A stretch of 64,000 nt of DNA from an uncultured Alphaproteobacteria bacterium (GTDB lineage Bacteria; Pseudomonadota; Alphaproteobacteria; Rhodobacterales; Rhodobacteraceae). A model generated the notes under the pieces. The model was not told where the DNA came from, did no database searches, and saw nothing but the letters and a program-made list of their open reading frames with translations. Below are positions 4,343-21,723 of this stretch, in pieces. The stretch spans positions 1,160 to 65,159 of the forward strand of contig CABZEW010000002.1 in NCBI GenBank assembly GCA_902524845.1, read 5' to 3'. Every line of letters starts with the position of its first letter. Position 1 is the first letter of the stretch. Position numbers and translations under genes: made by a program.

Positions 4343-5494
4343 TTAACTTGCTTTTCTAAAAGATAAAGTACTGTATGCATTAATTAATATCTCTTCTATG
4401 TTTTTAACATCGAAGTTATTTAATACATAATTACGGTTTATTCGTCCAGTAAAAACCCTCTCTGGTGCTTTAATTTGCAGTAGGTGCGTCAAAATTCTCT
4501 CTAAACTCGTTGTTTCACCATTTCCAGAAAGATAACTATGATATTCTTTAGGTACAAGCTCTTTATTTACATCGTTCTCCCAACTAACTACCGCATTACC
4601 CATAGCCAAAGCGTTTAGTATGTCTAGTGAATAGTAATCGGTTTGAGGATTTAAGTCTAAGTATATCGAGGATAATTTTAAGCATGCCTCGAAGTCAGTT
4701 AAAGGATCCATAAGACATAAAACACTAGTTCTGTTTTTGAAGTATTTTTCCTCGAATTCAATGAGTTGTTTCTTATTCGCACGATTTTTCAAAACTATGA
4801 GGTAAGGTTTAATATTTTCTGGGAGTTTCTCTAGGATAACAGAGAGTTTAATTATCTGGTTTTGCCATTTTTTTGAATCAAAATACGCTCGAGTGAAAAC
4901 TATATGCCGAGGTTTCTCAAGCATCCCCCACTTGGTAGCTAAGGAGATAGTTCTTTCTTGACTAATCTTGTTCTCATCAAATATCGTGAAGTCCACCGGT
5001 ACTGGGACATGAACCAGGTCAATATTTTTTCTCGAATATTTGGTTAAAAGTTCTTTGTATGCTGTTTTGCTGGGCACTAAGGTTGTAACTTGAGGTAGAG
5101 ACTCTCCAAATATGGTCGTATTCAATCTGTTCATTATACTTTGCTCTGATGTGTTTTTCAGTAAAGACATTATTATTTTTATTGAACAGCTTTTCTGAAC
5201 CTGTAAAGCGGCTTTATAGCCTGCTGTATCATACACATGTATTATCGTTATAGATTTTGAGGACACAACTTCACAAATTTCCTTGACGGCAGATTTAGAA
5301 TAAACAATATCTATTGACGACGAGCGTTGGCTGACAATTTCTGCACCCCATCTTTTGAAATATGACAATTCTCTACCTAGGGGAGCGAAAACATATGCGT
5401 TACAGTTATTATCTTTTAAGACTTTAGAGTGAGCTGCGACTGCTCTTATTGAAATATCTGCATCAAAGCTGCTTAGAAGTTGAAGAATGTTCAT
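4343..5494 (-). CDS. glycosyltransferase (GT-B fold, GT4-like), putative
   Basis: The long ORF is 4343..5584. The likely start is MNILQLLSS at 5494, which removes the overlap with the divergent gene. The C-terminal half has a GT1/GT4-like layout, but the assignment is weak. Confidence 0.45.
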
Positions 5495-5545: not shown

Positions 5546-6313
5546 ATGGTTGAAACAAGTTTCTTTCACATTGACGATGAACAAAAATTAGCTTTTTCAC
5601 AAGTTATTGGTGGCAAAAATAGAAGAATGTTTCCCGGTGTTGTATTCTTGAGTGGTCTCAAGTCAGATAAAGAAGGGACAAAGGCAGTTTTCTTATCTCA
5701 GTGGGCTGAAAAGAATGAGAGGGACTTTTTAAGATTTGACTACCGAGGTCATGGAGCTTCCTCAGGAACGTTTGAGGATACTTCTATTACGGATTGGCTT
5801 GATGATACAATAAGAATTGTCATGGGTCTTACATCGGGCCCTCAGATTTTGGTAGGATCTTCTCTTGGGGGATGGATATCACTTTTATTTGCGCGAATGT
5901 TCCCTCAAAAGGTTGCAGGGGTAATTGGTATTTCTGCAGCTCCTGACTTCACAGCACAATATGCCAGCAATAAACTTACTTCGGATCAAAGACAAGAGCT
6001 ATTAAGTACAGGTAAACTTTCTTTTTATTCTGAGTATTTTGATCAGCCTCTAGTCATTACCAAAAAATTAATCGAAGACGGAAATAAAAACCTAGTTTTG
6101 ACAAAAAAACAAAACATAAAATGCCCAGTAAGACTTTTCCATGGATCTTGCGATGAAGATGTTCCTCTTTCTACTAGTATCGATATATTGAAAAGAATAA
6201 GTAGCATTGACGTGCAACTTCAAATTATTAAAGGAATAGATCATAGGTTTTCTACACCAGACTGCTTGAAACTAATACAAAAAGCAGTAGAGCAGGTGCC
6301 TCTACCCTATTAA
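5546..6313 (+). CDS. alpha/beta hydrolase
   Basis: 255 aa with a GSSLGG nucleophile elbow (G-x-S-x-G) and a late GIDHRF histidine. Confidence 0.7.
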   Translation: MVETSFFHIDDEQKLAFSQVIGGKNRRMFPGVVFLSGLKSDKEGTKAVFLSQWAEKNERDFLRFDYRGHGASSGTFEDTSITDWLDDTIRIVMGLTSGPQILVGSSLGGWISLLFARMFPQKVAGVIGISAAPDFTAQYASNKLTSDQRQELLSTGKLSFYSEYFDQPLVITKKLIEDGNKNLVLTKKQNIKCPVRLFHGSCDEDVPLSTSIDILKRISSIDVQLQIIKGIDHRFSTPDCLKLIQKAVEQVPLPY

Positions 6314-6532
6314 CATTCCGACGAGTACGATAATAAGACCAAAAGCGCCTAATGAAAGAGAAAGATAATTTATCATTATTAATCTTTCGAAGAAAATCTT
6401 TTGTTCTTTCTTGGCGTAACGTTTAGAGTTTTTTCTGATTAAAATACTACAAATGATAACTGTAGAAAGCCCAATTAGACAGAAAAAGCACAGAAAAACT
6501 CCGAGGCTAACTAAAATTAAAGCCAACATCAT
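6302..6532 (-). CDS. small membrane protein (2 TM), hypothetical
   Basis: 76-aa ORF with two hydrophobic helices around a basic loop. No recognisable family. Confidence 0.35.
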   Translation of the reverse strand: MMLALILVSLGVFLCFFCLIGLSTVIICSILIRKNSKRYAKKEQKIFFERLIMINYLSLSLGAFGLIIVLVGMLIG

Positions 6533-6629
6533 TATGCATTACATCAAAACTTAACCGAAATATACAAATAGATAACTTACAATAAAATTTTATTGCAAAA
6601 ACAATAAAATGTTTCTAATTTCGGACCGT

Positions 6630-6705
6630 GCCTCTATAGCTCAGTTGGTAGAGCAACTGATTTGTAATCAGTGGGTCGGGAGTTCGAGTCTCTCTGGGGG
6701 CACCA
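6630..6705 (+). tRNA. tRNA-Thr (anticodon UGU)
   Basis: 76 nt, GCCTCTATAGCTCAGTTGGTAGAGCAACTGATTTGTAATCAGTGGGTCGGGAGTTCGAGTCTCTCTGGGGGCACCA. The cloverleaf was folded by hand: acceptor GCCTCTA/TGGGGGC, anticodon stem ACTGA/TCAGT with loop TTTGTAA, T-arm GGGAG/CTCTC, encoded CCA. Confidence 0.9.
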
Positions 6706-6784
6706 TCCAGTTACAGTGTTAGCTTTATTTGCTTGGCTTTGATGAAACTTAGTCAAGGAGGGTAGACCAAATGGTAGACCAAAA
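6706..6784 (+). promoter_or_regulatory. attL-side arm (P' arm) with tandem 12-mers overlapping the int start
   Basis: TCCAGTTACAGTGTTAGCTTTATTTGCTTGGCTTTGATGAAACTTAGTCAAGGAG, then GGTAGACCAAAT (6761-6772) and GGTAGACCAAAA (6773-6784). The int ATG (6771-6773) straddles the two 12-mers and the SD AAGGAGG is at 6755-6761. Confidence 0.55.
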
Positions 6785-7886
6785 TGGAGCATATTTATTC
6801 AGAAAACGTGGTATCTACTACTTTTCAAAGCGCATACCATCAGATCTAAAACATTTGTATCGAGTAGAGAGACTAATACATTCTCTTAGAACTAAATGTG
6901 ATAGGAAAGCCAAGTCACAAGCATTAGCTATGTTGCTTAAGCTTGACGATCATTGGTCAAAAGCAAGACTGCACAATGATGTGCTTCACAGAAAATCTCT
7001 CAATCACAACAAAGCCATAAAATTCACGGAAAGTGTTTCAGAGTATCTTTCTGCAAATGGATCTAACCGAAGTATAACTTTTGAAAAAGCTGTGCAGAGA
7101 GCATCCAGATACCTTGTAGAGTCTGTTGGAGATAAAGACCTCAAAAGTTACACACGTGCTAATGCAAATTCTTTTAGAGACTATTTAATTGATAAAGGGT
7201 TGGCAGGTAGCTCAATTACTAGAATACTTACCACAATTAAAGCGATACTTAATTTCGCTAAACGTGAACATAGTTTAAATATGAACAATCATTTTGTTGG
7301 GTTGAACTATGATAGAAGCAAGAGAGTAGGGGGCAGACTACCTATTCCTATGAAGCACCTTCAAGCAATACAGAAGCGATGTGTAGAAATAGATGATGAG
7401 CTAAGATGGCTTGTTGCCCTAGTATCAGATACTGGGATGAGATTAGCAGAAGCTACAGGTCTTTTGGTGGAGGATATAAACTTAGATGCAGATATTCCTT
7501 TTGTCTCTTTAAAAAGTTATCCTTGGAGACCTTTGAAGACGGAGGGAAGCACAAGAGATATCCCTTTGGTTGGACAAGCTTTGTGGTCTGCAAAACGAAT
7601 AAAAACCATGTCACAAAGTAGGTTCGCCTTTCCTAGGTATAATACCATGTCTATTACGAGCTCTAATACAGCTAGTGCTACACTCAACAAGTGGTTAAAA
7701 AGCGAAAGTAATTATAATTATACGATGCATTGTTTTAGACACTCATTACGAGATAGATTGAGAAATATTAACTGTCCCTCAGACGTAGCTGATCAGATTG
7801 GTGGCTGGTCTAATAAAACGGTAGGGCAGGAATATGGTAGTGGCTATGCTTTGAGGAATTTGGAATGGTGGATGAGTTTAATTTAA
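6771..7886 (+). CDS. tyrosine-type site-specific integrase
   Basis: 371 aa. The N-terminal YYFSKRIPSDL-type arm is common in tRNA-island integrases. The catalytic signature is present: R in DTGMRLAEATGL, H-x-x-R in HCFRHSLRDRL, and W/Y in GGWSNKTVGQEYGSGY. Sits directly 3' of the tRNA. Confidence 0.9.
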   Translation: MVDQNGAYLFRKRGIYYFSKRIPSDLKHLYRVERLIHSLRTKCDRKAKSQALAMLLKLDDHWSKARLHNDVLHRKSLNHNKAIKFTESVSEYLSANGSNRSITFEKAVQRASRYLVESVGDKDLKSYTRANANSFRDYLIDKGLAGSSITRILTTIKAILNFAKREHSLNMNNHFVGLNYDRSKRVGGRLPIPMKHLQAIQKRCVEIDDELRWLVALVSDTGMRLAEATGLLVEDINLDADIPFVSLKSYPWRPLKTEGSTRDIPLVGQALWSAKRIKTMSQSRFAFPRYNTMSITSSNTASATLNKWLKSESNYNYTMHCFRHSLRDRLRNINCPSDVADQIGGWSNKTVGQEYGSGYALRNLEWWMSLI

Positions 7887-7889
7887 CAA

Positions 7890-9368
7890 TTATTTTGTAT
7901 AATGTCTTCTATGCCTTTCCAACCTCTTCCTGTAGCCCTCAGTCGATACACTTTCATTCACAAAATGCATATTATCTAAATAATAATCTCTGTCTGGTCC
8001 TGTACTGTACTTTGCTTGGTTGACCTGACCAAGCGTAAGATTTTTATTAAACTTTACCTTTGTTTTGTTTTTATTCGTGACATATACAAAGGCTTCCTTC
8101 ATCAGTTTCTCAAGCCTGTCCTCTTCTCCAAAAGGAACGATAAAACTATCATGTACGGTCAGGATAGGCGTATCCGTTTTAACAAAATCTTTAATAATAT
8201 ATTCAGCTATTTTACTATCTATATTCATCAACTCTAATCCTGCACCACTATTAATGAGATGCTTAATCTTTGGGTGCTTATCCTTAATGCTCTGAAGTAT
8301 TTCAGAGAGCTTTTCATCAGGAAATGAATAGCGTACAGAATAGTTTTTATAGTCAAACTCTGATCTAAATGCTTTGAATAAACTGGACTCGTCAGACGCA
8401 TTAAATGCGAGCAAAGTAAGTTGCTTTACGACATCTCGTGCATGATCAGGGTACTCTATGCCCTCTATAGGAATATTGTAGGGGTCTTCATCTGTTGTTG
8501 CCCAGTAGTCTATACCCTCTTTGGCATATGCTAGGATTACATGAAGACCAGAGAAGTCTATTTCAACAGTGGAACTATCATTTAATCGTATAGCTCCTCT
8601 TAATATTTGATCTATTTGCTGCCAGAATCCACCGTAGAAACGTCCTCCCTGATCCCATGAGCTATTGTTGAACACTCTATGGGTGAACTTGCCATGATGG
8701 GTAATGTTGACATATCTAGTTTTACCTGAGTTCTTATCTTTAATCTCTAACATGGGTTTATTCATGTCAGGGATATCTATGAATGTTTTTTCCAACAGAT
8801 CGTTGTTAGCTCGTACAACTTTAGCCATCTCTTCTGTATGTTTTGTAGTCTCATATTCAACATTCTTTTTGTTGCTATCACGTAGAATAATGACTTCTTT
8901 ATTCTTAATATAATTAATATCAAAGTATCCAAATTGTGCAGTCTCAAATGCTTCTATAAGGCGCTCATAAGCCCATATACGGGATGTACGTCCTCCATAC
9001 TCAAGACTACCTTCATAACCTTCTTTAAAGCCTATAAGCCCTACATCTTTGAGTCTGTGAATGACTTGAATGATAGTATCTTTTATATGCAGTTCGTTAT
9101 ATCTGCTCTTACCTTTAGAGAAGACTGTCCCATCACTATACGCATTGGGAGACATGTGAACTCCTATACATAGGTTGGGATCATCTATCCATGCTACATA
9201 GAGATCTAGGAGTACTACTTTGAGTAGTTTTTTACGTATAGTTTTGTTGGCATTATCAGTTAGGAAATATTGCTCATATATAGAGTTCACAAATGTGTTG
9301 GTTTCAGTATAACAACTCCACCTATGGACATCTAAAGGTCTTGAATAGTTATAGTCTCTTGTAACCAT
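7890..9368 (-). CDS. compact polymerase-like protein with T7-type single-subunit RNAP / family A palm motifs
   Basis: 492 aa. WDQGGRFY (239-246) resembles T7 DWRGRVY. EIDFSGLHVILAY (D271) resembles motif A DGSCSGIQH. RDVVKQLTLLAFNAS (K315, F322) resembles motif B RSVTKRSVMTLAYGS. TVHDSFIVP (D407) resembles motif C IHDSFGT. The T7 motifs are quoted from memory and motif order is conserved. Confidence 0.55.
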   Translation of the reverse strand: MVTRDYNYSRPLDVHRWSCYTETNTFVNSIYEQYFLTDNANKTIRKKLLKVVLLDLYVAWIDDPNLCIGVHMSPNAYSDGTVFSKGKSRYNELHIKDTIIQVIHRLKDVGLIGFKEGYEGSLEYGGRTSRIWAYERLIEAFETAQFGYFDINYIKNKEVIILRDSNKKNVEYETTKHTEEMAKVVRANNDLLEKTFIDIPDMNKPMLEIKDKNSGKTRYVNITHHGKFTHRVFNNSSWDQGGRFYGGFWQQIDQILRGAIRLNDSSTVEIDFSGLHVILAYAKEGIDYWATTDEDPYNIPIEGIEYPDHARDVVKQLTLLAFNASDESSLFKAFRSEFDYKNYSVRYSFPDEKLSEILQSIKDKHPKIKHLINSGAGLELMNIDSKIAEYIIKDFVKTDTPILTVHDSFIVPFGEEDRLEKLMKEAFVYVTNKNKTKVKFNKNLTLGQVNQAKYSTGPDRDYYLDNMHFVNESVSTEGYRKRLERHRRHYTK

Positions 9369-9527
9369 ACCTTAGTATATTAGGTCACTAAGATGCTATA
9401 AATACTTAATATTAAGTACTCTTATAAATATAGTAACTAATATATATTATTACTTCCTCCATAAACTTCTTCCATTACCAATAGGTTTTTTAAACTATCC
9501 TTGTTTTAACATGAAAGGAGTAGCCAA

Positions 9528-9689
9528 ATGTGGTTACCAATAACTTGTAAAAGCACCAACGCCTACTACATGCAAAGTATGATAATATTCGTAGCAACAT
9601 TAGCCACTATCCTGCTTTTAACAAAGCTTGGAGCAAAGCCGAAGCAACAGCCAAAGCGGTTTAGGGTGAATGCAAAGACGAAAAGTTAA
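9528..9689 (+). CDS. small membrane protein (53 aa), hypothetical
   Basis: Not in the track. ATG lies 8 nt after AAAGGAG. MWLPITCKSTNAYYMQSMIIFVATLATILLLTKLGAKPKQQPKRFRVNAKTKS has one TM helix and a basic tail. Confidence 0.35.
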   Translation: MWLPITCKSTNAYYMQSMIIFVATLATILLLTKLGAKPKQQPKRFRVNAKTKS

Positions 9690-9962
9690 AGCAAAGATTC
9701 AAGCGTGATTATGCACAGAGTTCCAGTAAGCAAGTAGCACAACTGCTAAAACAAGCAGATGATTACATTGCTAGCAGTGGAACTGAGTTTTTTAAATGCG
9801 TAGCAAATAGCAAACAACGCTCGTATAGCGTCATACAAGCGTTGTAAGAGTTTATAGTATAAGATTATGTTTAAGGCTTTTAGACTACGTATAGTGCTTA
9901 AGATTAGCCTACAGCCTCTTCTTCGTTATCTAATTCATAAAAATCAATAACACTTTGAAGCA

Positions 9963-10337
9963 TTATTGAGGACTTATCCACCAATCATCTGTTGCGTTTT
10001 CATATATTTCTAGACCTTTCACAAAATGTTCTTGGAATGCGGGAACTTGTTGCATTTTTCTAAAATCTGCCTGTATAGATGCTATATCTGCACCACTGCT
10101 TGTCCACTTTATTCTATTAGGATTTCCTGAGATAGGTAATGTAACTGCTAGCTCTACTCCATTTTCAGCACATATTTTGACGAAACCAAGAGCATGTTGA
10201 ACTGCTAGTGGTAACGGTGTTCCGTCCCGTACTTCAGCAGTGCGTGACCAGTAAGCCTCTGCAGAAACAAAATTTGTTGAGGCTATTAAACACACTAGCG
10301 TTAATAACATTGATATTTTTCTTCTTATAATTTTCAT
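9963..10337 (-). CDS. small secreted protein, hypothetical
   Basis: Signal peptide MKIIRRKISMLLTLVCLIASTNFVSAEA. The ATG at 10337 is 8 nt after AAGGAG, whereas the track start at 10346 is a GTG overlapping the SD. Confidence 0.55.
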   Translation of the reverse strand: MKIIRRKISMLLTLVCLIASTNFVSAEAYWSRTAEVRDGTPLPLAVQHALGFVKICAENGVELAVTLPISGNPNRIKWTSSGADIASIQADFRKMQQVPAFQEHFVKGLEIYENATDDWWISPQ

Positions 10338-10538: not shown

Positions 10539-10865
10539 ATGATGAAACTAAAACATTTTATTGCGACACACACTTTTCATTCGGATAAAGTAAAAAAAGA
10601 ATATTTGAAGTTTGTCAAACATAGGAAAAAAAATGCTGAGTGGTTTGAAAATGTACCACAGAGGGAGGATGCCCAACTACATCAATTGTTTATTGGCAAG
10701 GAAGATTTTTTCTTTTGCCACTGGTATGCTGAGAGCGAAAAAGCGATTATTGAAACTTTATCCGAAGCAGGTGCTGATCAATATATGATAACGATGGCCA
10801 CTGAGGTAGGCGTACCTAAAATTGATTTAGATAAAATGACAATGTTGATGGGAAAAATTAAATAA
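10539..10865 (+). CDS. hypothetical protein (possibly DUF4242-like ferredoxin fold)
   Basis: Likely start is MMKLKH at 10539, after AGGGGTG. FFFCHWYAESEKAIIETLSEAGADQYM loosely resembles DUF4242. The stop TAA lies inside the left end of CBR1. Confidence 0.45.
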   Translation: MMKLKHFIATHTFHSDKVKKEYLKFVKHRKKNAEWFENVPQREDAQLHQLFIGKEDFFFCHWYAESEKAIIETLSEAGADQYMITMATEVGVPKIDLDKMTMLMGKIK

Positions 10866-11061
10866 ACCCCATCTGCTGCATAATCCAAGACCATACTACG
10901 TGTATACCCCTTGCGTCCCATGCGTGGGAGGGGTCACTTAGACTTTGAAACAAATCGTGCCTATTGATATGAACACGGGGATACCTGAGTTCCTGTAATT
11001 CACCTCTTTTTGTTGCTAATGGTGCAGTATAAGGGCAGTTAACTTTATCTCAGCCGCACCA
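10861..11061 (+). repeat. cassette boundary repeat CBR1 (diverged 'type 2')
   Basis: AATAAACCCCATCTGCTGCATAATCCAAGACCATACTACGTGTATACCCCTTGCGTCCCATGCGTGGGAGGGGTCAC ... AATGGTGCAGTATAAGGGCAGTTAACTTTATCTCAGCCGCACCA. The 12-mers and tRNA-derived part are degenerate. Confidence 0.6.
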
Positions 11062-11081: not shown

Positions 11082-12365
11082 CTAAAGCTGTAATTTGTGA
11101 ATACCGATCTTTTCTGTTCTACCTGGAATACTAAAATTTGCCTCGAAATCAGACTTGATTTCTTCAGATAATCGTTTGGCCACGGCATCGCTAATAATTA
11201 CTTGGCTATCAAATTTTTTACACGCATCACATAAACGATTAGCTACATTCACTGTATCTCCTAAAACGGTGAATTCAACTCTCTGATCTCCGCCAATGTT
11301 CCCAATTATGCATGGGCCAAAATGAATGCCAATTCTGTGCGTTATTTGAGGTAGTTTCTTTTCTGCGCGTTCTTTTGACCACTGGTTCATAGAAATTTGC
11401 ATTTTTCTCGCGCATTCAAATGCATTTTGAGCGTCATTGCCTCTACTAGTAGGTGTCCCAAACGTAGCCATAACTGCATCGCCTATAAATTTGTCAACAG
11501 TACCACCTGAACTAAATATCGCAGCAACCATTTTGGACTGGTACTCAGAAACCAATCGAACTACATCTTTGGGATCCATCGTTTCGGTCATCTTCGTAAA
11601 GCCATTTATATCTGTAAACAAAACTCCTACTAAAGAAGATTTTTCTACTTCAGTAATGTCAGAAAAACGGCTATTCTCTATTTCATCTTTAACCTCAGGA
11701 GAAAAATATCTACCTAATACCTGGTTTGCCCTCTCAAAATTCGAAGCTTGATTTGTTACTTTATCGAACTGCCAGCTAGTTACCGTAACCACTATAACCG
11801 TGAATACAACAAATAAACAATTCAAAACAAACCAGTCCAAATTTATAGCGAGTCCGTCTGAGAAAACAACTGGCAGGTTGCTAGAAAAAAATACACCATC
11901 AATGCTTAAAGCCATATATTGCTGGATAACAATGCTAGTTACAAATAATGCCGACAGGAATGCAGAAATAGTCAATCTGAGATATAGAACAGATACCACA
12001 ATAAACATAATACCAGGCGCGAATTGATAATCAACAATCCTTCCAACATTAGACTCAACGAGTAATGGATCATTATCAAGATTCGTAAGTATAGCGACAC
12101 CAATATTTGTTAAAATTATTAATAAAAGGCTCAAGAAAAGTAAAGGGCGATAATTTTCGATTCTAGTGTTCAACGCTATTGCTGCATTTAGTAGCGAACT
12201 AGTAAGAAACAAAGTAGGAAACCCAAACTTACCTAAGTCAGTGCTTGCGGTAGGTATTAGGAGTTGTGAAAATACTACCATCATCTGAATCATAGCATAG
12301 ACCCAGCTCACCATCTTCAACCCAGAGACATATCTTGAAATTAATTGATCGTTATTCATCATCAA
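11082..12365 (-). CDS. membrane-anchored class III adenylate/guanylate cyclase
   Basis: 427 aa with about 6 TM helices followed by a cyclase homology domain (VLFTDINGFTKMTE, DKFIGDAVMATFG, EFTVLGDTVNVANRL). Paralog of 33600..34895. Confidence 0.85.
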   Translation of the reverse strand: MMMNNDQLISRYVSGLKMVSWVYAMIQMMVVFSQLLIPTASTDLGKFGFPTLFLTSSLLNAAIALNTRIENYRPLLFLSLLLIILTNIGVAILTNLDNDPLLVESNVGRIVDYQFAPGIMFIVVSVLYLRLTISAFLSALFVTSIVIQQYMALSIDGVFFSSNLPVVFSDGLAINLDWFVLNCLFVVFTVIVVTVTSWQFDKVTNQASNFERANQVLGRYFSPEVKDEIENSRFSDITEVEKSSLVGVLFTDINGFTKMTETMDPKDVVRLVSEYQSKMVAAIFSSGGTVDKFIGDAVMATFGTPTSRGNDAQNAFECARKMQISMNQWSKERAEKKLPQITHRIGIHFGPCIIGNIGGDQRVEFTVLGDTVNVANRLCDACKKFDSQVIISDAVAKRLSEEIKSDFEANFSIPGRTEKIGIHKLQL

Positions 12366-12462
12366 TCTTTAACCAGCAAAATATTGGTTTGTTTGATAGA
12401 CATAGCATACCTTTTCATAACCAGACCATTCAATAGTTTGTATAGTGAACTTAATAGTTAAA

Positions 12463-12686
12463 GTTGTAAACTCCCCATCTGTTGCACACTCCAAGAAAAT
12501 ACTACGTGTACACCCCTAGTGGTCTGGCATGGGGGTAGACCAAACGGTAGACCAAAATTGTTTAATTGATGCGTAAATCTATGTTAAACTTTCAGATAAG
12601 TAGCCAAGAAAAGCTAATTATAGTTGGTAGAGCAACTGATTTGTAATCAGTGGGTCGGGAGTTCGAGTCTCTTTGGGGGGGCACCA
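12463..12686 (+). repeat. CBR2, full-length 'type 1' repeat with pseudo-tRNA-Thr
   Basis: GTTGTAAACTCCCCATCTGTTGCACACTCCAAGAAAATACTACGTG... The 12-mers are GGTAGACCAAAC at 12534-12545 and GGTAGACCAAAA at 12546-12557. A spacer is followed by the tRNA segment at 12623-12686, which is identical to the gene over GAGCAACTGATTTGTAATCAGTGGGTCGGGAGTTCGAGTCTCT and has a 5-nt D-loop deletion and a non-pairing 5' acceptor. Confidence 0.85.
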
Positions 12687-12741
12687 TCGAGTTCTAGCTC
12701 TGTTTATTTGGCTTTGATGCAGCTTAGTCAAGGATGTAGAC
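12687..12741 (+). repeat. P' arm remnant without integrase
   Basis: TCGAGTTCTAGCTCTGTTTATTTGGCTTTGATGCAGCTTAGTCAAGGATGTAGAC aligns with 6706-6767 next to the real tRNA. Homology stops inside the first 12-mer, where int would start. Confidence 0.7.
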
Positions 12742-13374: not shown

Positions 13375-15228
13375 CTATTGATTTAAATAGCCAATTTCAT
13401 CTAAGTAAGGCTTGATAAGAGGATAAACTTTCCCATCTTTCCAATTCTGTAACCTCGAGATTTTTAATCCCGCCTTATTAGCTCTTGCTAATAACTTTTT
13501 AGCCTCTTCTAAATTACCAACTTCAGCCTCTAAAGCCGCATAAAGAATTAGAAGAAGCGAAGTTTTGTTAGAGAACTCATCGTTTAAAACATCCTTTAAT
13601 AGTGTCTTTATTTCATCCTTTCGATCAAGCATATAAAGCTGAGGGGCCAACTGCATTTTTACCATATGCTGTACATCATTTGGCATCAATCGAAGAGCTT
13701 CATAGCGGTAACCGACTGCTTTTTCAGCCAATCCACACATTTCTAAAATATTTGCCCCGACATTCAAAACAGTCGGATTAGCACTATTGATAGATAGCGC
13801 TTTATTAATGTGGCCCATCGCTATATCGCAATCCTTTGACAAAAAGATAAATTCTACATTCGCTCTCATCATGTACGCATCGTCATTTCCTTTAGTATTT
13901 ATGATATTTTGAGAAATATAATCTAGACGTGCGATATCCTCTTCTCGTTTCTGAGATAGACCTAAACGCAACCTCTGATATATCGTCCAACCTTCGATAT
14001 ATTCCATAACATATTGGTTACTGGATATTTTTTTTAAACTTTCAAATAGTTCTAAATGTTTATTATATCCTTCAGGCGTCCATCTTCTCCATTCATTTCT
14101 GTGATTTAGAAAAAGCGTATATGCTTCAGCAGTATCGAATTCATTCAACCATTTTTTTGCATTTTGGCCTTCAACCATATTTACTTGAAGTTCAACAAGT
14201 AAATTTGTCCCTAAATCATCTTGAACCTTAAAAATATCTTTTTGCTGAAAATCTAGCAAATCTGACCATGATATTGTTCTCTTCTCGAAGTCATAAAGCT
14301 CTACAGTTAACCTACTTTGTTCACCAAAAGCTTGCACAGAACCCTTTATCAAATAATTTACACCAAAATTCTTACCGATCTCATCATCACTTATGTCCTG
14401 CTCTAATATATTAAAACTAGTACTTGAGGACAAAACGTTGATGCCGTTATATTTTGATAAAATAGATATTACACCTTCTGTAAGAGCTGTTCCAACCGAA
14501 CTATTATCTGAACCCAATGTCTGGAATGGCTTAACCAATATAGTGGGCAGAGAGTTTTTGTTTTTCTGTACTTTTAGTTCCTGGTCCGTATCTTCTTTAA
14601 ATATGCTGAATGTTGAAAAGACCAAAAAGCCAATTACTAAAAGAGCTGCAATTGCTCCAACGGACACAAACCTCAAGCTTTTTTTATTTTTAAGTGTTCT
14701 CTTTTGCGACGGATCAAGAAGTATATCAAACGCATGGAATTCGTTCTGTTTAACCTTTTGTACCCCAAGATCATTAAAAGTCATCTTAGTTTTTGGCACA
14801 ACAAAGTCGTATACACTTTTTGATATTGATATCCCGTTCGGTTGAGCAAGAGCTTCTAGCCTGGCGGCGATATTTACACCGTCTCCTATAAGATTGGAAT
14901 CTTTTCTTACGACATCTCCCATATTTATACCAAGACGAAACTCCAGCTTTACAACTGCTTTTTGAGAGTCGTGTCTTTTCTTTATTTGTTTTTGGAACTC
15001 AACTCCACACTCAACAGCATTAACAGCACTAGGAAACTCAGCCAGGACCGAATCTCCAGCAGTGTTAAACACAGATCCCTTATATTTTTTGAGGAGTGTT
15101 TGTAAGATCTTTTCACAAGAATTGTAGCTATTGATTGTGGCATTTTCATCTTTTTCCATATGCTTGGAATAGCCAACTACGTCGGCAACAAATATAACAG
15201 CGATTTTACGATCAAAATTGCTAGACAT
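13375..15228 (-). CDS. class III adenylate cyclase with TM segment and C-terminal TPR-like domain
   Basis: Start moved to MSSNFDRKIAVIFVADVVGYSKHM at 15228, because the track's 56-aa N-terminal extension runs through CBR3. The cyclase domain (FNTAGDSVLAEF, NLIGDGVNIAARLE) is followed by one TM helix and TPR-like repeats. Confidence 0.85.
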   Translation of the reverse strand: MSSNFDRKIAVIFVADVVGYSKHMEKDENATINSYNSCEKILQTLLKKYKGSVFNTAGDSVLAEFPSAVNAVECGVEFQKQIKKRHDSQKAVVKLEFRLGINMGDVVRKDSNLIGDGVNIAARLEALAQPNGISISKSVYDFVVPKTKMTFNDLGVQKVKQNEFHAFDILLDPSQKRTLKNKKSLRFVSVGAIAALLVIGFLVFSTFSIFKEDTDQELKVQKNKNSLPTILVKPFQTLGSDNSSVGTALTEGVISILSKYNGINVLSSSTSFNILEQDISDDEIGKNFGVNYLIKGSVQAFGEQSRLTVELYDFEKRTISWSDLLDFQQKDIFKVQDDLGTNLLVELQVNMVEGQNAKKWLNEFDTAEAYTLFLNHRNEWRRWTPEGYNKHLELFESLKKISSNQYVMEYIEGWTIYQRLRLGLSQKREEDIARLDYISQNIINTKGNDDAYMMRANVEFIFLSKDCDIAMGHINKALSINSANPTVLNVGANILEMCGLAEKAVGYRYEALRLMPNDVQHMVKMQLAPQLYMLDRKDEIKTLLKDVLNDEFSNKTSLLLILYAALEAEVGNLEEAKKLLARANKAGLKISRLQNWKDGKVYPLIKPYLDEIGYLNQ

Positions 15229-15284
15229 ATTGAACCATAGGGACACAAAAATTAATTTACAAGATTGACGTAACTGGAGTTCTT

Positions 15285-15400
15285 TTCTGCTGTGCTTGAC
15301 TGCAGCGTACTCCAAGAAAATTCTGACTGTACGTCCCCAGTAGTCCTGCATAGGGGTAGACAAAACTCTAAACAAATATATGCGTTGGGAGACCACCCAG
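15285..15400 (+). repeat. CBR3 (decayed left module with degenerate 12-mers)
   Basis: TTCTGCTGTGCTTGACTGCAGCGTACTCCAAGAAAATTCTGACTGTACGTCCCCAGTAGTCCTGCATAGGGGTAGACAAAACTCTAAACAAATATATGCGT. Confidence 0.55.
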
Positions 15401-15489: not shown

Positions 15490-15593
15490 GGAACAAGTCT
15501 GTGAGAATGTTGTACCAGTTGGGGAGGAAAATTCCACAGAAACACTATTTCTATACATTATTCTGAAAATTAAACAGGCTGTTCCTTTTTTTT
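15490..15593 (+). ncRNA. candidate ~105-nt structured RNA (sRNA or leader) of module B copy 1
   Basis: Predicted +1 is about 7 nt after the -10. 5' GGAACAAGTCTGT (15490-15502) can pair with ACAGGCTGTTCC (15574-15585), directly followed by T8 (15586-15593). An alternative hairpin, CTGTGAGAAT/ATTCCACAG, presents a CCAGTTGGGGAGGAAA loop. Confidence 0.45.
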
Positions 15594-15623
15594 AAAAAAA
15601 AAGGGCCACACTTTGTATGGCCC
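15594..15623 (-). terminator. intrinsic terminator-like hairpin reading on the minus strand
   Basis: GGGCCA...TGGCCC hairpin (15603-15623) preceded by A9 on the + strand, which is hairpin plus U9 on the minus strand. Conserved in copy 2. Confidence 0.4.
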
Positions 15624-16119
15624 AGTGGGGAGGAAATGTCCGATTAGGACAATAGTTTGATGTTAAACTAAATATCTTAGACTGCAAGAATAACGTGACG
15701 TTAACGTAAACTTAACGTTGAGTAATTCTTAATAAAGTTACCTTCGATCTGGCAACACTTTAGTTTGCAATTAAATTACCTTACAAGTTTAAAAGGATGC
15801 TCAGGTATCTGAAGTTATTGTGTAAATGTTTCGGTCAATTATTTGCTAATTTTGACCGCTTGATTGAAACAATTCTTAAAATTGTAGCTTAATAAAATTA
15901 TAACTCGTCGTAATGAGGGTTTACTTGGTTTTATAACAAGAGCGAAAACGAATTTGTAATTAATGATTCACTAAAAAATTTATTACTGCATCAGTTTGTA
16001 TTTTTAAAAAAGGCATAGTGAACGCAAGGTCTCAGTTTTATTATTTTGGAATTGAGATAATGGCATAAACAAAAAGGATCAGATTAAATATTTCCAGAGT
16101 TTCAATTCTGATGTCGTTT

Positions 16120-18042
16120 CTAATCAGACAGTCCTAGCGGCTTAAGTACATTGCCAATGTCAGCCAAAAACTTCTTATTCTGGAATGCAGGATAGTCAGA
16201 AAACGGGGAGTTTGCAGTATATTTCCTCCCAATACCATTACTCATTTCTAATGTTTGAGCAGCAAGTTTGTTTTGTTTTTTCTTTTCATAAGAGTACGCC
16301 AATAGGGCCGAGATCGTTGGCAATGCCATAACATCATTATGGTATCTCTTGGATTTCTCTGACATCCAAAGGCTCTCGAGTTTTCCGGAGTCCACACCAT
16401 ATTGAAAAGTGAGATAGGCATATCCATAAGCAAGATATTTCGCGTTAAAAGCGCTAGGTCTTAATTCAAGTGATCTTTCCATATGAAGCAAGCCTTGCTC
16501 AAATTGATCTTGTGAGCTCCCATTCGAAGAACAGACTTGGTACAATAATCCAAAGTCGAATTGGCTCAGATGATCGTCGTAAATCCTATTTTCATATTGT
16601 TTGAGATCTGGAATAATAGAACAAGCCAAATCAAACTTCTGTAAGATTGCCTGATAAATACTCTTTCCCGCAAATAAATATAAATATATTGAATCAGCTT
16701 GATCAACAAATTGAATGCCGTGAGATAGATAATTTATGGCCTTGTTGATTTCCAAGGTAGGATCATCAACAAGTCCCAAGCTAGTACTAGCAAATGTATG
16801 AAAAGCTGCCAGTTGTAAAACGTGAGGATCATTTGGTGCAGAAGCTAGGTTCCTTTGTAATAGTTGACCTGCATAAGTCACACTCTCGACTGTTGATTTT
16901 AGAATAGCCTTATCAATCTTGATAAGATCAAAGTAAGTTTTGGGGTCATTCGTGTATTTGAACACGTGCTGCTTAGATGAAATATATCTCGATAATCCCT
17001 TCATAAGAAACATTGCAAGTTGTTCTTTTACCACGATCATGTTTTCTTCTATTCGGAAATCATACTGCTCTCTGAAAATTGTTTCAGAGGATACTGCTTC
17101 AACAACTCTGTATTGAACTCTTATAAATTCCTCTGAGTTTTGTACTGTGCCCGTGACCACATAGCGGATATCATTATTTGCCGCCAATTCTTTGTAAGGC
17201 AGTTTTTCTTCGATGAGCAATTGAGCTTCGATAGAGTCAATAAATTTCATATCAGTATTAAGATCTGATAAAGTATTGTTGATACTAACAGAGAGGTTAG
17301 CTTGTTCACTGCCAAAGTTTTTTTCAGAACTTTGGCTTTCAAATGGAAGAATAAGTATTTTCGGTCTTATATCGGAAATATCTGTAGCTGAATTTATTTC
17401 TTCATTATTAAAGAAAATAGAGAAGTATGTAATTGCGGCAGAGGATATTAAAATTAATACTGCCAGTCCAAACATACTCAGCTTTTTCAATCCGGATTGG
17501 GGTCTCAATTTTCGTTTTTGTTTAGGATCAAGTATGACATCATAGACGTGAAATTGGTTGCTTTTTACTTTCTGTATACCCTGGTCAGCAAAAGAGAGCT
17601 TTGTCTTGGAAGATACATATTCAAAAATGCCCTTTGAAATTGATATCCCACTTGCTTGAGCCAAAGACTCTAGACGGGCGGCTATGTTGACTCCGTCACC
17701 TAAAAGGTTTCCTTTTTCCTTTATTACATCCCCAACGTTAATCCCGATGCGAAACTCTAACTTAACTGTTGCACCTGCAGTTTTATTTCTTCTTTTAATT
17801 GCATTTTGAAATTCAACGGCGCACTCAACCGCGGCAACGGCACTTTCAAACTCTCCAAAAAATGAGTCTCCCCCAGTATTAAAAAGTCTAGCTTTATATT
17901 TCTCGAAAAGGTCCTTTAGCAAACTTTCGCACGCTCGAAGGTTTTTTATAGTAGCATTTTCATCGCTTTCAATGTGCTTACTGTATCCAACTACATCAGT
18001 CGCAAAAATTACAGCAATCTTCCGCTCTATGGCAGTGTTCAC
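16120..18042 (-). CDS. class III adenylate cyclase with TM segment and C-terminal helical-repeat domain
   Basis: 640 aa. N-terminal cyclase domain (IAVIFATDVVGYSKHIE, FNTGGDSFFGEF, NLLGDGVNIAARLE) and one TM helix. Same architecture as 13375..15228. Confidence 0.85.
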   Translation of the reverse strand: MNTAIERKIAVIFATDVVGYSKHIESDENATIKNLRACESLLKDLFEKYKARLFNTGGDSFFGEFESAVAAVECAVEFQNAIKRRNKTAGATVKLEFRIGINVGDVIKEKGNLLGDGVNIAARLESLAQASGISISKGIFEYVSSKTKLSFADQGIQKVKSNQFHVYDVILDPKQKRKLRPQSGLKKLSMFGLAVLILISSAAITYFSIFFNNEEINSATDISDIRPKILILPFESQSSEKNFGSEQANLSVSINNTLSDLNTDMKFIDSIEAQLLIEEKLPYKELAANNDIRYVVTGTVQNSEEFIRVQYRVVEAVSSETIFREQYDFRIEENMIVVKEQLAMFLMKGLSRYISSKQHVFKYTNDPKTYFDLIKIDKAILKSTVESVTYAGQLLQRNLASAPNDPHVLQLAAFHTFASTSLGLVDDPTLEINKAINYLSHGIQFVDQADSIYLYLFAGKSIYQAILQKFDLACSIIPDLKQYENRIYDDHLSQFDFGLLYQVCSSNGSSQDQFEQGLLHMERSLELRPSAFNAKYLAYGYAYLTFQYGVDSGKLESLWMSEKSKRYHNDVMALPTISALLAYSYEKKKQNKLAAQTLEMSNGIGRKYTANSPFSDYPAFQNKKFLADIGNVLKPLGLSD

Positions 18043-18086
18043 AGGAGTTCTTTCATAAAGTCCTTATAATGAACTTTATACGCACA

Positions 18087-18312
18087 GTTGTAAATACCCC
18101 ATCTGCTGCACACTTCAAGAACATACTACGTGAGTACCCCCTATGTCCCACGCAAGGGTGGGGTAGACCAAACGGTAGACCAAAAGTGATTAATTTATGC
18201 TTTAATCTATGATATGCTGGTAAAAGAGTAGCCAAGAAAAGCTAACTATAGTTGGTAGAGCAACTGATTTGTAATCAGTGGGTCGGGAGTTCGAGTCTCT
18301 CTGGGGGCACTA
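18087..18312 (+). repeat. CBR4, full-length type 1 repeat with pseudo-tRNA-Thr
   Basis: GTTGTAAATACCCCATCTGCTGCACACTTCAAGAACATACTACGTG... 12-mers at 18162-18173 and 18174-18185. The tRNA segment at 18251-18312 ends CACTA instead of CACCA. The track ORF 18053..18235 lies inside this repeat and is judged spurious. Confidence 0.85.
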
Positions 18313-20538: not shown

Positions 20539-20865
20539 CAAAAGCATAACCTATTTTGGACCTATATTAATACCACTAGCATTATAATGTTTAGCTACAC
20601 AAACTGCATAAGAAATGAAACCGTCGAGCCTAGAGAGGAAAGAAAATAAATCAAACACTTCAAGCAATTAATTGACTTCGGTCGGATTAGAAACATACTC
20701 TTGAGAGGATTTTTTTTTTGGCGGTATACTGAGTAAAAATATTTGTCAAAAAGTGAGTTACATACACTAGATATGCTTGTGTTTGTTTAGAAGCGAAAAA
20801 TATTGAGCCAACTCTTGAAAGATGAAGGGTAATCAGATGAAACATAAGCCAATAAGGTTATAAAA

Positions 20866-21723
20866 GTGAAACCACCAAACTTTCAATACAAACGACCCTT
20901 CTCTATCGATGAAGCATTGGCGATAATCGATAATTGCAAAGACCTAGATGTTCGTATTATTGCGGGTGGTCAAAGCCTTATACCAATGATGAATTTTCGA
21001 GTCGCAGTCCCAGAAGTTTTAGTAGATCTCGGTGCAATTCAAGGATTAACCACTATTCAAAAAGATAGTGACTTCTTGTATATTGGAGCTATGGCCACAG
21101 CTACGAGTGTAATGCAGAGTGATCTAATTTTAAGAAATGCTCCCTTAATACCACTAGCGTATGAGCATGTTGCACATCCTACAATTCGAAACCGAGGAAC
21201 TCTTGGAGGCAATCTCTGCCATTGCGATCCTGCGTCTGAAATGCCAATGGTAATGTCAGTGCTTCAAGCCAAGCTAATAGTCGCATCCACTAGGGGGGTC
21301 CGTTGCATCTCAGCAAAGGACTTTTTTAAAGATCTTTATACCACCGCTTTAGAACCCGATGAAATTCTTACTCAGATCAGAGTACCCTTTGCTTCTCATA
21401 GTACACGATTTGCTTTCGAGGAGATAAGTTTGCGTAAGGGTGACTATGCAATAGTAGGCATTGCAGGAAGTATTGAAACTAAGCAAGGTAGTTGTAAAAA
21501 TCTACGTATTGGTCTTTGCGGTGTTAGCAATGTTGTAGCCTGCTTTGATCAGTTTAGTGACCTAACCCAAGGATGTAGAGTAGAGAATATTCCTACAGAG
21601 AAGATTATTGAGAGAGTCAGATCTCAAATAAACTTTGAGTCTACTGCTTCGGTTAGTGCTGCCTATCGAAAGTATGCCACAGAGGGCTTAATCAGGCGTG
21701 TTGTTGATCGCTTACGAGGGTAA
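20866..21723 (+). CDS. xanthine dehydrogenase-family molybdoenzyme, FAD-binding medium subunit (CoxM-like)
   Basis: 285 aa with IIAGGQSLIPMMNFR and RNRGTLGGNL motifs. Confidence 0.85.
   Translation: MKPPNFQYKRPFSIDEALAIIDNCKDLDVRIIAGGQSLIPMMNFRVAVPEVLVDLGAIQGLTTIQKDSDFLYIGAMATATSVMQSDLILRNAPLIPLAYEHVAHPTIRNRGTLGGNLCHCDPASEMPMVMSVLQAKLIVASTRGVRCISAKDFFKDLYTTALEPDEILTQIRVPFASHSTRFAFEEISLRKGDYAIVGIAGSIETKQGSCKNLRIGLCGVSNVVACFDQFSDLTQGCRVENIPTEKIIERVRSQINFESTASVSAAYRKYATEGLIRRVVDRLRG

Follow-up and report, generated by a model that had tools for sequence, protein, structure and literature searches.

A compact family-A-like polymerase, probably of the TV-Pol kind, beside the integrase of a tRNA-Thr island in an uncultured Rhodobacteraceae bacterium

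Introduction

What is the task of a small polymerase gene that lies next to the integrase of a genomic island? This question is raised by a stretch of 64,000 nucleotides (nt) from an uncultured alphaproteobacterium of the Rhodobacteraceae (GenBank assembly GCA_902524845.1, contig CABZEW010000002.1, positions 1,160 to 65,159 of the forward strand), which is called the window in the following and whose numbering is used throughout. It contains an open reading frame (ORF) of 492 amino acids beside the gene of a tyrosine integrase. A preliminary description, made from the letters of the DNA, had taken the encoded protein for a T7-like single-subunit RNA polymerase, unusually minimal if active, at the head of a cassette array. 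On the evidence presented here the protein is most likely a polymerase of the TV-Pol kind, and its gene probably serves the replication of the island.

Transposon-Virus polymerases (TV-Pols) are proteins of 400-600 amino acids from mobile elements and viruses with a minimal superfamily-A core (Iyer, Abhiman and Aravind, Biol Direct 2008, PMC2579912). The core comprises a thumb of two antiparallel helices, a beta-hairpin that bears an invariant Arg, a palm in which two Asp residues are found and fingers with an Asp and an RxxxK motif, to which an all-helical domain, TV-PolN, is predicted to be added in the integrase-linked subset (PMC2579912). TV-Pols are never linked to nucleases; either a D5-like helicase is fused or adjacent to them, or they carry an extra N-terminal domain and have a resolvase, lambda-type integrase or transposase nearby (PMC2579912). 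They were predicted to act as primase-polymerases and were proposed to represent a minimal, ancestor-like form of the Pol I / T7 RNA polymerase (RNAP) superfamily (PMC2579912). The species list includes many bacteria of the Roseobacter group, other marine Proteobacteria, Bacteroidota and marine metagenomes, and the Microcystis phage Ma-LMM01 is named as the host of a TV-Pol element (PMC2579912). As an enzyme class, minimal superfamily-A polymerases of mobile elements have thus been known as TV-Pols since 2008 (PMC2579912). The sole TV-Pol characterised biochemically is CcPol (Rice, Front Mol Biosci 2023, PMC10061031), a protein of SCCmec which together with its OB-fold partner MP forms a template-dependent primase-polymerase that uses deoxynucleoside triphosphates (dNTPs) and does not need a primer (Bebel et al., eLife 2020, PMC7581432).

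Results

The polymerase gene (7890..9368, minus strand) is an ORF with an ATG start. Its 492-amino-acid product contains four motifs in the order typical of the superfamily: DQGGRFY at residues 239-245, EIDFSGLHVILAY at 269-281 with D271, RDVVKQLTLLAFNAS at 311-325 with R311 and K315, and TVHDSFIVP at 404-412 with H406, D407 and S408. The ORF, the order of the motifs and the inter-motif spacings of 32, 44 and 92 amino acids had been given exactly in the preliminary description, and the spacings of about 116, 94 and 181 amino acids that it gave for T7 RNAP are likewise correct: in the actual T7 sequence DWRGRVY is found at 421, DGSCSGIQH at 537, RSVTKRSVMTLAYGS at 627 and IHDSF at 810, and the anchors D421, D537, K631 and D812 yield 116, 94 and 181. 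Of 20000 shuffles of the polymerase, only 4 were matched by a loose regular expression that required the four motifs in this order. As a pattern, the four motifs are beyond chance.

In an alignment of 100 homologs with 30-55% identity, the most conserved positions of the whole protein are its motif residues. G242, E269, D271, Y297 and K315 are conserved to 100%, followed by N323 (99%), by R243, R311, D407 and S408 (98% each), by H276 and L319 (97%) and by D295 and H406 (93%). The ratio of nonsynonymous to synonymous substitution rates (dN/dS), determined against four close relatives, is 0.09-0.12, and the gene is under purifying selection. The family is large. Among the candidates scored in a database clustered at 90% identity there were 2929 matches, and the relatives form 8271 clusters at 50% identity with an expectation value (E) of at most 1e-3, 1792 of them with E <= 1e-30. 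In PHROGs the protein falls into phrog_4756 (E 3e-53), to which no function is assigned there.

The structure of the polymerase was predicted with AlphaFold2 from 36 homologs, with a mean predicted local distance difference test score (pLDDT) of 84.9 and a predicted template modelling score (pTM) of 0.79. A polymerase core is delimited at about residues 200-440 (8049..8771, minus strand) by conservation, secondary structure and the Foldseek alignments to PolA. In the model, a helix follows strand 267-272, near whose C-terminal end D271 of motif A (codon 8556-8558) is located, and D407 of motif C (H406-D407-S408; D407 codon 8148-8150) is placed between strands 403-405 and 408-412. The fingers include D295 and R311xxxK315, with R311-K315 inside helix 307-323, and the hairpin Arg, R243, is inside strand 242-245. 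This modelled topology is that of palm motifs A and C, of the O-helix and of the template-contacting hairpin, ahead of which a single long helix (176-194) is found. As modelled, the protein consists of a palm, fingers, a reduced thumb and a family-specific N-terminal domain, without a nuclease domain. The N-terminal accessory domain (about residues 1-170; 8859..9368, minus strand), which is of the alpha/beta type and reached a pLDDT of 88 in a separate model, contains a helix (98-108) and two strands (112-115 and 129-133) that could form a winged-helix unit. In tblastn alignments to the phage homologs described below the match begins at about residue 66-159, so that most of this domain is unmatched. 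Some relatives have N-terminal extensions, in which Pfam finds no domain; in part these may be over-extensions of the ORF through the region of the upstream motif.

When the model was compared with the structures of the PDB by Foldseek, the top 50 matches were family-A DNA polymerases only, with E 1.5e-5 to 1.7e-3, a probability of mostly 1.0 (0.95-1.0) and about 260-290 aligned columns. They include the Plasmodium apicoplast polymerase, Bst and Taq Pol I, the Klenow fragment, Pol theta, Pol nu and mycobacterial Pol1, and no T7 RNAP chain is among these 50. In the library of predicted viral structures (BFVD) the best matches were about 11 phage proteins of 400-450 amino acids (E 4e-16 to 1e-23, ten of them at E <= 2.4e-20), one of which, from a Rheinheimera phage, is named 'DNA polymerase'. 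They are followed by PolA proteins and then, at rank 42 or lower and E of about 2e-3, by T7-like RNAPs. The model, the Foldseek matches and the conservation all agree with the earlier view that the protein is a compact right-hand polymerase, belongs to the Pol I / T7 RNAP superfamily and has its catalytic motifs intact. The label of a T7-like RNAP had to be given up: the PDB matches are family-A DNA polymerases throughout the top 50, RNAPs appear only at E of about 2e-3, and motifs A and B are closer to those of T7 DNA polymerase.

Profile comparisons were less informative. For this purpose PolA and T7-like RNAP profiles were built from phage and plasmid records. With hhalign, the home-made PolA alignment of ten sequences was matched at E 0.36 in a wrong register, and the home-made T7-like RNAP alignment of six sequences at motif C alone (residues 402-427 against T7 807-832, E 0.015). 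The family profile gave non-significant alignments with the single sequences of T7 gp5 and T7 gp1, the best RNAP alignment being again that of motif C, and in PHROGs a faint match to the phage RNA polymerase phrog_414 (E 0.054) covers 54 residues around motif C. The matches to the home-made profiles are too weak for a family placement on the basis of sequence.

The motifs themselves resemble different members of the superfamily. Motif A, D-F-S-G-L-H, is near to D475-A-S-G-L-E480 of T7 DNA polymerase (DNAP), and motif B starts with R-D-V-V-K as compared to R518-D-N-A-K522 of the same enzyme. Motif C is H-D-S-F as in T7 RNAP (H811-D812-S-F) and not H-D-E, in agreement with the preliminary description. 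By these comparisons the motif set is a mosaic in which motifs A and B are closer to T7 DNAP and only motif C is RNAP-like. The three positions involved in sugar selection are unusual: that of the Pol I steric-gate Glu (E710; E480 of T7 DNAP; D+5) is H276 here, that of F762 / Y526 (K+4) is L319, and that of Y766 and T7 RNAP Y639 (K+8) is N323. In terms of the PolA motif B, RxxxKxxxFxxxYG, R311 and K315 are kept, and the F and Y positions are occupied by L319 and N323. The Phe formerly placed at the Tyr639 position, from which a loss of sugar discrimination as in the T7 Y639F mutant had been argued, resulted from an alignment shifted by one residue. The true equivalent, N323, is Asn in 99 of 100 homologs, and the neighbouring F322 is Phe in 4 of 100 and usually I, L or V.

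In the window the polymerase gene and the integrase gene (6771..7886, plus strand) are convergent, with 3 bp between the end of the integrase gene and the stop codon of the polymerase. The integrase has DUF6538, SAM-like and Phage_integrase catalytic domains according to Pfam, the N-terminal DUF6538 domain with E 7e-16, and its gene is preceded by a tRNA-Thr(TGT) gene (6630..6705, plus strand; ARAGORN; 70 bits in Rfam). The pairing of the polymerase with a tyrosine integrase beside a tRNA is thus borne out.

The genomic context was then surveyed in 80 related loci from species genomes, and neighbouring ORFs were clustered over 81 loci. The hosts are uncultured marine Alphaproteobacteria, SAR116 cells, many Rhodobacteraceae, Rhodospirillales and some Gammaproteobacteria, together with one member of the Cyclobacteriaceae and one of the Neomarinimicrobiota. 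A tRNA gene was present within the fetched stretch in 59 of the 80 loci, and in six of them a matching tRNA lies on either side of the polymerase gene. The tRNAs are those for Thr, Gly, Arg, Val, Leu, Ala and Ser; in the Rhodobacteraceae they are mostly tRNA-Gln. Three arrangements were seen repeatedly: tRNA-int-pol; pol-int-tRNA, which is that of the window; and tRNA-pol, cargo and int in this order. The polymerase gene is usually close to the end of the island, by the tRNA or the integrase, and the cargo varies between loci. The sole widely shared neighbour is an integrase cluster, found in 38 of the 81 loci; no other gene family recurs widely near the polymerase, nucleases not having been searched for by name. 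The expected co-occurrence of the homologs with integrases by tRNAs was therefore observed, and with its islands by tRNAs and the integrase as the only conserved neighbour the polymerase gene has stood up as a hallmark gene of the element. In other genomes the polymerase is found together with related integrases (23-64% identity) at sites in tRNA-Thr, Gly, Arg, Leu and Ser.

A conserved motif of about 25-30 nt (9465..9495, minus strand) was found 97-127 nt upstream of the ATG of the polymerase gene. It has the core GTAATGGAAGA and reads AAAAACCTATTGGTAATGGAAGAAGT at 9465..9490, 97-122 nt ahead of the ATG. Between motif and ATG extends an AT-rich leader (9369..9464, minus strand), recognised from its sequence and as part of an upstream block conserved in five relatives. 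It includes a perfect palindrome of 16 nt, TACTTAATATTAAGTA (9403..9418), that abuts a match to a sigma70-like promoter (9402 to 9374). From position -1 to -130 the upstream block is 78-85% identical in the five relatives, while the gene shows differences of 34-50% at synonymous sites; for two of the five the homology ends at about -130 to -170. The motif of the window is matched by model R1 with 24.3 bits (E 4e-5).

At least 30 related loci have, upstream of the polymerase gene and on the coding strand, a consensus of about 25 nt, aaTAGGTAtnaGTAATGGAAGAgg, with the same core; in most loci where it was found its distance from the gene is 85-160 nt. It is kept in loci in which the proteins share only 35-40% identity, in Rhodobacteraceae as well as in Gammaproteobacteria. 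With a sequence-only model 39 matches at E < 0.01 were obtained in 1.18 Mb (both strands), most of them within a few kb of the gene. Many relatives have a second, identical copy of the motif beyond the polymerase gene on the opposite strand. In many loci, mostly of Rhodobacteraceae at tRNA-Gln, the motif copies are located inside near-perfect inverted repeats of 100-700 nt which bracket the gene with or without cargo. In locus coordinates, such repeats are found at 9248-9694 and 11282-11728 (L043), 9635-10075 and 13599-14039 (L044), 9727-10218 and 16556-17047 (L046), 9591-10104 and 11991-12504 (L077), and 4529-5233 and 20730-21434 (L012); L057, L064, L075, L078 and L050 have them as well. No long inverted repeat is present in the window. 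The outer ends of the repeats hold the last 17 or so nt of tRNA-Gln, as checked against the tRNA coordinates in L043, L044 and L046, and some repeats take in the first 25-70 codons of the polymerase gene. Next to a tyrosine integrase, inverted, att-like ends of this kind could point to inversion, could reflect foldback replication, or could bound a polymerase-only unit with terminal inverted repeats. In addition, extra partial 5' ends of the polymerase gene with the upstream motif occur in direct or inverted orientation in L001 (about 5790-6400), L046 (about 16556-17047) and L064 (about 6074-6739), which suggests repeated insertion or recombination at the polymerase module.

The motif of the window is 2.8 kb away from attL. 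As the motif travels with the polymerase gene and not with the att site, it is most simply explained as a site used by or for the polymerase. It may accordingly be described as a candidate origin or priming site, a candidate operator, or both, as in many Rep-ori modules. The main text of the TV-Pol paper contains neither the motif nor the flanking inverted repeats (PMC2579912), and to our knowledge this architecture has not been described to date.

Homologs of the polymerase also occur in phages. Phrog_4756 comprises 276 phage records, mostly of Vibrio, Rheinheimera and Aeromonas phages, and two such loci were examined, those of gp041 in Rheinheimera phage Barba19A (L099, 4584-5891) and of Aeromonas phage PhAER-3 (L100, 4821-6086), which encode proteins of 421-435 amino acids. 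In IMG/VR only distant relatives with 23-33% identity were found, and these give no indication of a packaged island form. Plasmid matches amount to five, three of them on replicons of Paracoccus or Neorhizobium with the size of chromids (1.6-2.2 Mb) and two on plasmids of about 130 kb from Thioclava and Sphingomonas. With just these five, the idea that the family is a common plasmid replicase was dropped.

The island in the window measures 11.6 kb and consists of two tandem segments, whose boundaries are formed by the 3' end of tRNA-Thr, present three times. The left att repeat corresponds to the 3' 61-63 nt of tRNA-Thr (6643..6705, plus strand; repeat family D3 in the repeat alignments). A second, internal fragment is located at 12622..12682 (plus strand; tRNA match of 29.4 bits in Rfam; 95% identity within D3), and a third, at 18250..18312 (plus strand; repeat alignments and Rfam search), is the outer right att repeat. 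Segment 6706..12682 contains the integrase, the polymerase, two small ORFs and a cyclase of 427 amino acids; segment 12683..18312 contains two cyclase-TPR genes and neither an integrase nor a polymerase. The latter opens with a remnant of 45 nt from the integrase-proximal end (repeat family D7; 12690-12734 and 6715-6759 are 82% identical) and for this reason looks like a decayed earlier insertion.

Beside each att copy a paired iteron, GGTAGACC-N5-GGTAGACC, was observed. Near attL it forms the tandem GGGTAGACCAAATGGTAGACCAAAAT (6760..6785, plus strand; repeat family D5), which overlaps the region of the integrase start codon; the other two att cores are each preceded, at a distance of about 64 nt, by a copy (12533..12558 and 18161..18186), and a weaker copy is at 15354-15379. 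In L011 and L015 reverse-complement iterons, two copies of GGTCTACC, adjoin the conserved motif on its upstream side. The paired iterons are candidate arm-type binding sites of the integrase, as judged from their arrangement.

The cargo is made up of class III nucleotidyl cyclases. The 427-amino-acid protein (11082..12365, minus strand) is membrane-anchored and matches PF00211 (E 1.2e-26) as well as the Pycsar cyclase PycC of PADLOC (E 4e-32). The other two cyclase genes (13375-15396 and 16120-18042, minus strand; PF00211) code for proteins of 640-673 amino acids with an N-terminal cyclase domain each; both show weak similarity to PycC, and the 673-amino-acid protein has weak TPR matches (PADLOC TPR, E 0.002). 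No effector gene was recognised alongside the island cyclases. A repeat of about 90 nt (...CCCCATCTGCTGCA..TCCAAGA..ATACTACGTG...) is found in the island at 10845-10934, 12451-12540, 15300-15379 and 18075-18164. The copies at 12451-12540 and 18075-18164 are just upstream of cyclase genes, and that at 15300-15379 overlaps the third cyclase ORF at its annotated 5' end. The repeat may represent a promoter or 5' region in common, or a junction sequence, and is probably one source of the impression of a cassette array. An integron-like array was rejected: the repeats are tRNA 3' fragments and shared 5' regions of paralogous cyclase genes, and what had been described as cassettes are the two tandem segments between three tRNA fragments. 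Between two of the cyclase genes lies a match to the small RNA suhB/mmgR (15588-15657, minus strand) that is below the Rfam threshold (35.4 bits as compared to a gathering score of 41, E 3e-4). Rfam revealed nothing relevant near the polymerase gene.

Discussion

The protein is most likely to be filed with the TV-Pols, as far as sequence and motif features allow; its direct sequence link to them is a weak match to MAP_030 of phage Ma-LMM01, a member of our own choosing. MAP_030 (506 amino acids) was taken as the TV-Pol of this phage on account of its motifs and its transposase neighbours. It adjoins IS605-type transposase genes, displays GLRVY, YDVVKCH, VKTAVLAVINGA and QHDG, and has only six homologs in the databases. 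Another protein of the phage, MAP_134 ('putative DNA primase'), was discarded as a candidate; with its CxxC zinc-finger-like N-terminus it is of the DnaG type by eye.

We consider it probable that the gene encodes an active minimal polymerase of this kind which is the replication gene of a small tRNA-targeting integrative island and which, as a primase-polymerase with a site in cis, forms a self-contained replication module. In such a scheme the tyrosine integrase would cut out, in circular form, a segment that lies between tRNA-Thr fragments. The site in cis to be recognised by the polymerase, perhaps by means of its N-terminal domain, would most likely comprise the GTAATGGAAGA motif and the palindromic, AT-rich stretch just upstream of the polymerase gene. 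The polymerase would start a chain de novo as a primase-polymerase and then extend it. Since the element has no helicase, the host helicase and replisome would probably take over and complete replication. Catalysis, primase activity, sugar specificity, binding of the motif and replication of the excised circle are ascribed to the protein by analogy, following the prediction made for TV-Pols and the precedent of CcPol.

Several observations weigh against this assignment. Pfam returned nothing better than E 0.12, to an unrelated family, for the 492-amino-acid protein; of the checks suggested in the preliminary description, the one with Pfam DNA_pol_A (PF00476) and RNA_pol (PF00940) gave no match, while the one with Foldseek led to a family-A polymerase fold and not to an unrelated one. 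Searches of NCBIfam and of the sequences of PDB chains with the single protein and two profiles brought up nothing relevant. A HMMER search with the hidden Markov model of the family found no match in the first 150 kb of the 162-kb Ma-LMM01 genome, MAP_030 included, and in hhalign the family alignment (A3) matched a MAP_030 family of seven sequences weakly (E 0.0033, probability 9.8%), in the registers GGRFY/GLRVY, D271/D264, H276/H269, K315/K307 and N323/N315. For the N-terminal domain, Foldseek gave weak matches only (E >= 0.13), mostly to winged-helix proteins (PadR, MarR, RQC, ORC). A preference for dNTPs or for nucleoside triphosphates (NTPs) is not predictable from H276, L319 and N323. 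The window has a single copy of the motif, and at the two phage loci examined the motif is absent; the phage homologs there lie outside the replication modules, amid hypothetical genes and genes of nicotinamide adenine dinucleotide (NAD) salvage (ribose-phosphate pyrophosphokinase, nicotinate phosphoribosyltransferase and a macro domain protein). [quoted passage not shown] With no conserved helicase, SSB or other replication gene nearby, the polymerase would therefore depend on the host or have another role.

One such role, as cargo of islands and phages in defence, counter-defence or repair, would leave the enzyme active. It would suit the phage homologs, which stand among early or accessory genes beside NAD salvage and not beside helicases or primases, the lack of a conserved helicase near the island copies, and the PycC-like cyclases in the cargo of the island. 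PADLOC, however, left the polymerase unmatched, for which reason the defence reading was down-weighted; the polymerase gene keeps a fixed place near the island end, like the replication modules of tycheposons and phage-inducible chromosomal islands (PICIs), while the cargo is variable; and it has a conserved cis motif of its own upstream. In view of this we see only a small chance that its role is not replication. That the polymerase fold is catalytically dead and serves purely as an origin-binding initiator or regulator is highly improbable. A vestigial nature has been considered for some PolA-like proteins of mobile elements (PMC10061031), and the weak winged-helix similarity of the N-terminal domain would fit a DNA-binding protein of this type, but conservation in 100 sequences reaches 98-100% for both metal-binding Asp residues, for the RxxxK motif and for the hairpin Arg, in a family of thousands of clusters at 50% identity. 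Such conservation of catalytic residues across a diverse family is hard to explain by a role without catalysis.

The protein might also be a minimal, promoter-specific RNA polymerase of the T7 type which transcribes from the GTAATGGAAGA sequence, either for gene expression or to supply RNA primers. T7 RNAP and mitochondrial RNAP make RNA primers for replication. The HDSF motif C, on which the best RNAP-profile match is centred, would agree with this, as would the replacement of the equivalents of the Pol I steric-gate Glu, F762 and Y766. Furthermore, distant lineages share a coding-strand sequence of about 25 nt whose distance upstream of the gene is fixed, which is reminiscent of a phage promoter. 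On the other hand, Foldseek favours DNA polymerases, with T7-like RNAPs reached only at E of about 2e-3 in the viral library, Pfam RNA_pol is unmatched, the Tyr639 equivalent is Asn, and motifs A and B are like those of T7 DNAP. With 492 amino acids the protein is too small for a promoter-binding N-terminal domain or a specificity loop, and the single motif of the window, together with a second copy in relatives that points antisense into the polymerase gene, would be odd for an expression promoter. We therefore regard a T7-type RNA polymerase as quite improbable. A bolder version of the replication scheme, in which the gene amounts to a complete one-gene module, that is a sequence-specific, helicase-independent primase-polymerase with its own 25-nt GTAATGGAAGA origin, seems unlikely. 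If true, such a module would drive the replication of thousands of tRNA-targeting islands in marine Alpha- and Gammaproteobacteria and might initiate in an unusual manner, by a foldback that depends on the inverted repeats or by a bidirectional start; alternatively, a minimal ancestor-like enzyme with relaxed sugar specificity might prime with RNA in a promoter-like fashion.

A polymerase beside an integrase is not a surprise, and the protein is not a new kind of enzyme. Its interest lies elsewhere. The precedent among the TV-Pols, CcPol, is atypical because it needs a partner protein, and the subfamily described here comes without a helicase or SSB partner. It is very large, with the 8271 clusters given above, and has no Pfam or NCBIfam model; in addition, its three sugar-selecting positions are all unusual (His, Leu and Asn), and it is accompanied by a conserved sequence that is a candidate for recognition. 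It should be a tractable system for studying how a right-hand polymerase starts chains de novo and what a minimal core requires to function, and also how small tRNA-targeting islands are replicated in marine bacteria of high abundance, for instance the SAR116 and Roseobacter groups. Together, upstream motif and inverted repeats provide a concrete experimental handle. Finally, the polymerase could serve as a compact enzyme in biotechnology.

Comparison with known systems

With the TV-Pols the polymerase shares its length of 492 amino acids, within the range of 400-600, and the order of the hairpin Arg R243, D271, D295, R311xxxK315 and D407. Like them it has an extra N-terminal domain and, according to Pfam, no nuclease domain in the protein itself or in its N-terminally extended relatives; it belongs to a mobile element beside a lambda-type integrase; and its relatives have a similar taxonomic spread, which includes Rhodobacterales, other marine Proteobacteria, Bacteroidota and phages. 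In contrast to TV-PolN, predicted to be all-helical, the N-terminal domain is of the alpha/beta type here and possibly a winged helix, and unlike in the D5-linked TV-Pols no D5-like helicase is fused or adjacent. The idea of a DNA polymerase or primase for the excised element, put forward in the preliminary description, corresponds to the prediction already published for TV-Pols (PMC2579912).

Similar to CcPol-MP, the protein is a family-A-type polymerase domain from an integrative element. CcPol differs in its surroundings, which comprise the MP gene just downstream, an operon with the Cch2 helicase and adjacent large serine recombinases, none of which is present at this polymerase; over the 81 loci, no small conserved partner gene and no helicase-sized gene recurs near it. 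CcPol also retains E710 and F762 of Pol I, which exclude ribonucleotides, where His and Leu are found here.

The family-A DNA polymerases (E. coli Klenow, Taq, Bst, T7 gp5 and the apicoplast polymerase) are the best structural match, and both catalytic Asp residues are in common. The protein differs from them by a polymerase domain of about half the size, by the lack of a 3'-5' or 5'-3' exonuclease, by HDS in place of HDE, by the exchanges of the steric-gate Glu for His, F762 for Leu and Y766 for Asn, and by the missing match to Pfam DNA_pol_A. The T7-like single-subunit RNAPs belong to the same superfamily and have the HDSF motif C and a similar DxxGR hairpin. They are larger (883 amino acids as compared to 492) and match the model less well than the DNA polymerases; the equivalent of their Tyr639 is Asn here, and their promoter-recognition N-terminal domain and specificity loop are absent.

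As a whole, the element resembles the tycheposons. These have an integrase that sits at a tRNA and faces inward, with a small replication module next to it or at the other end of the element; they also contain cargo and repeats of partial tRNAs, and were described in Prochlorococcus with an integrase lineage of their own and with primase or helicase profiles (Hackl et al., bioRxiv 10.1101/2020.12.28.424599). By layout, both the window and the related loci fit this arrangement.

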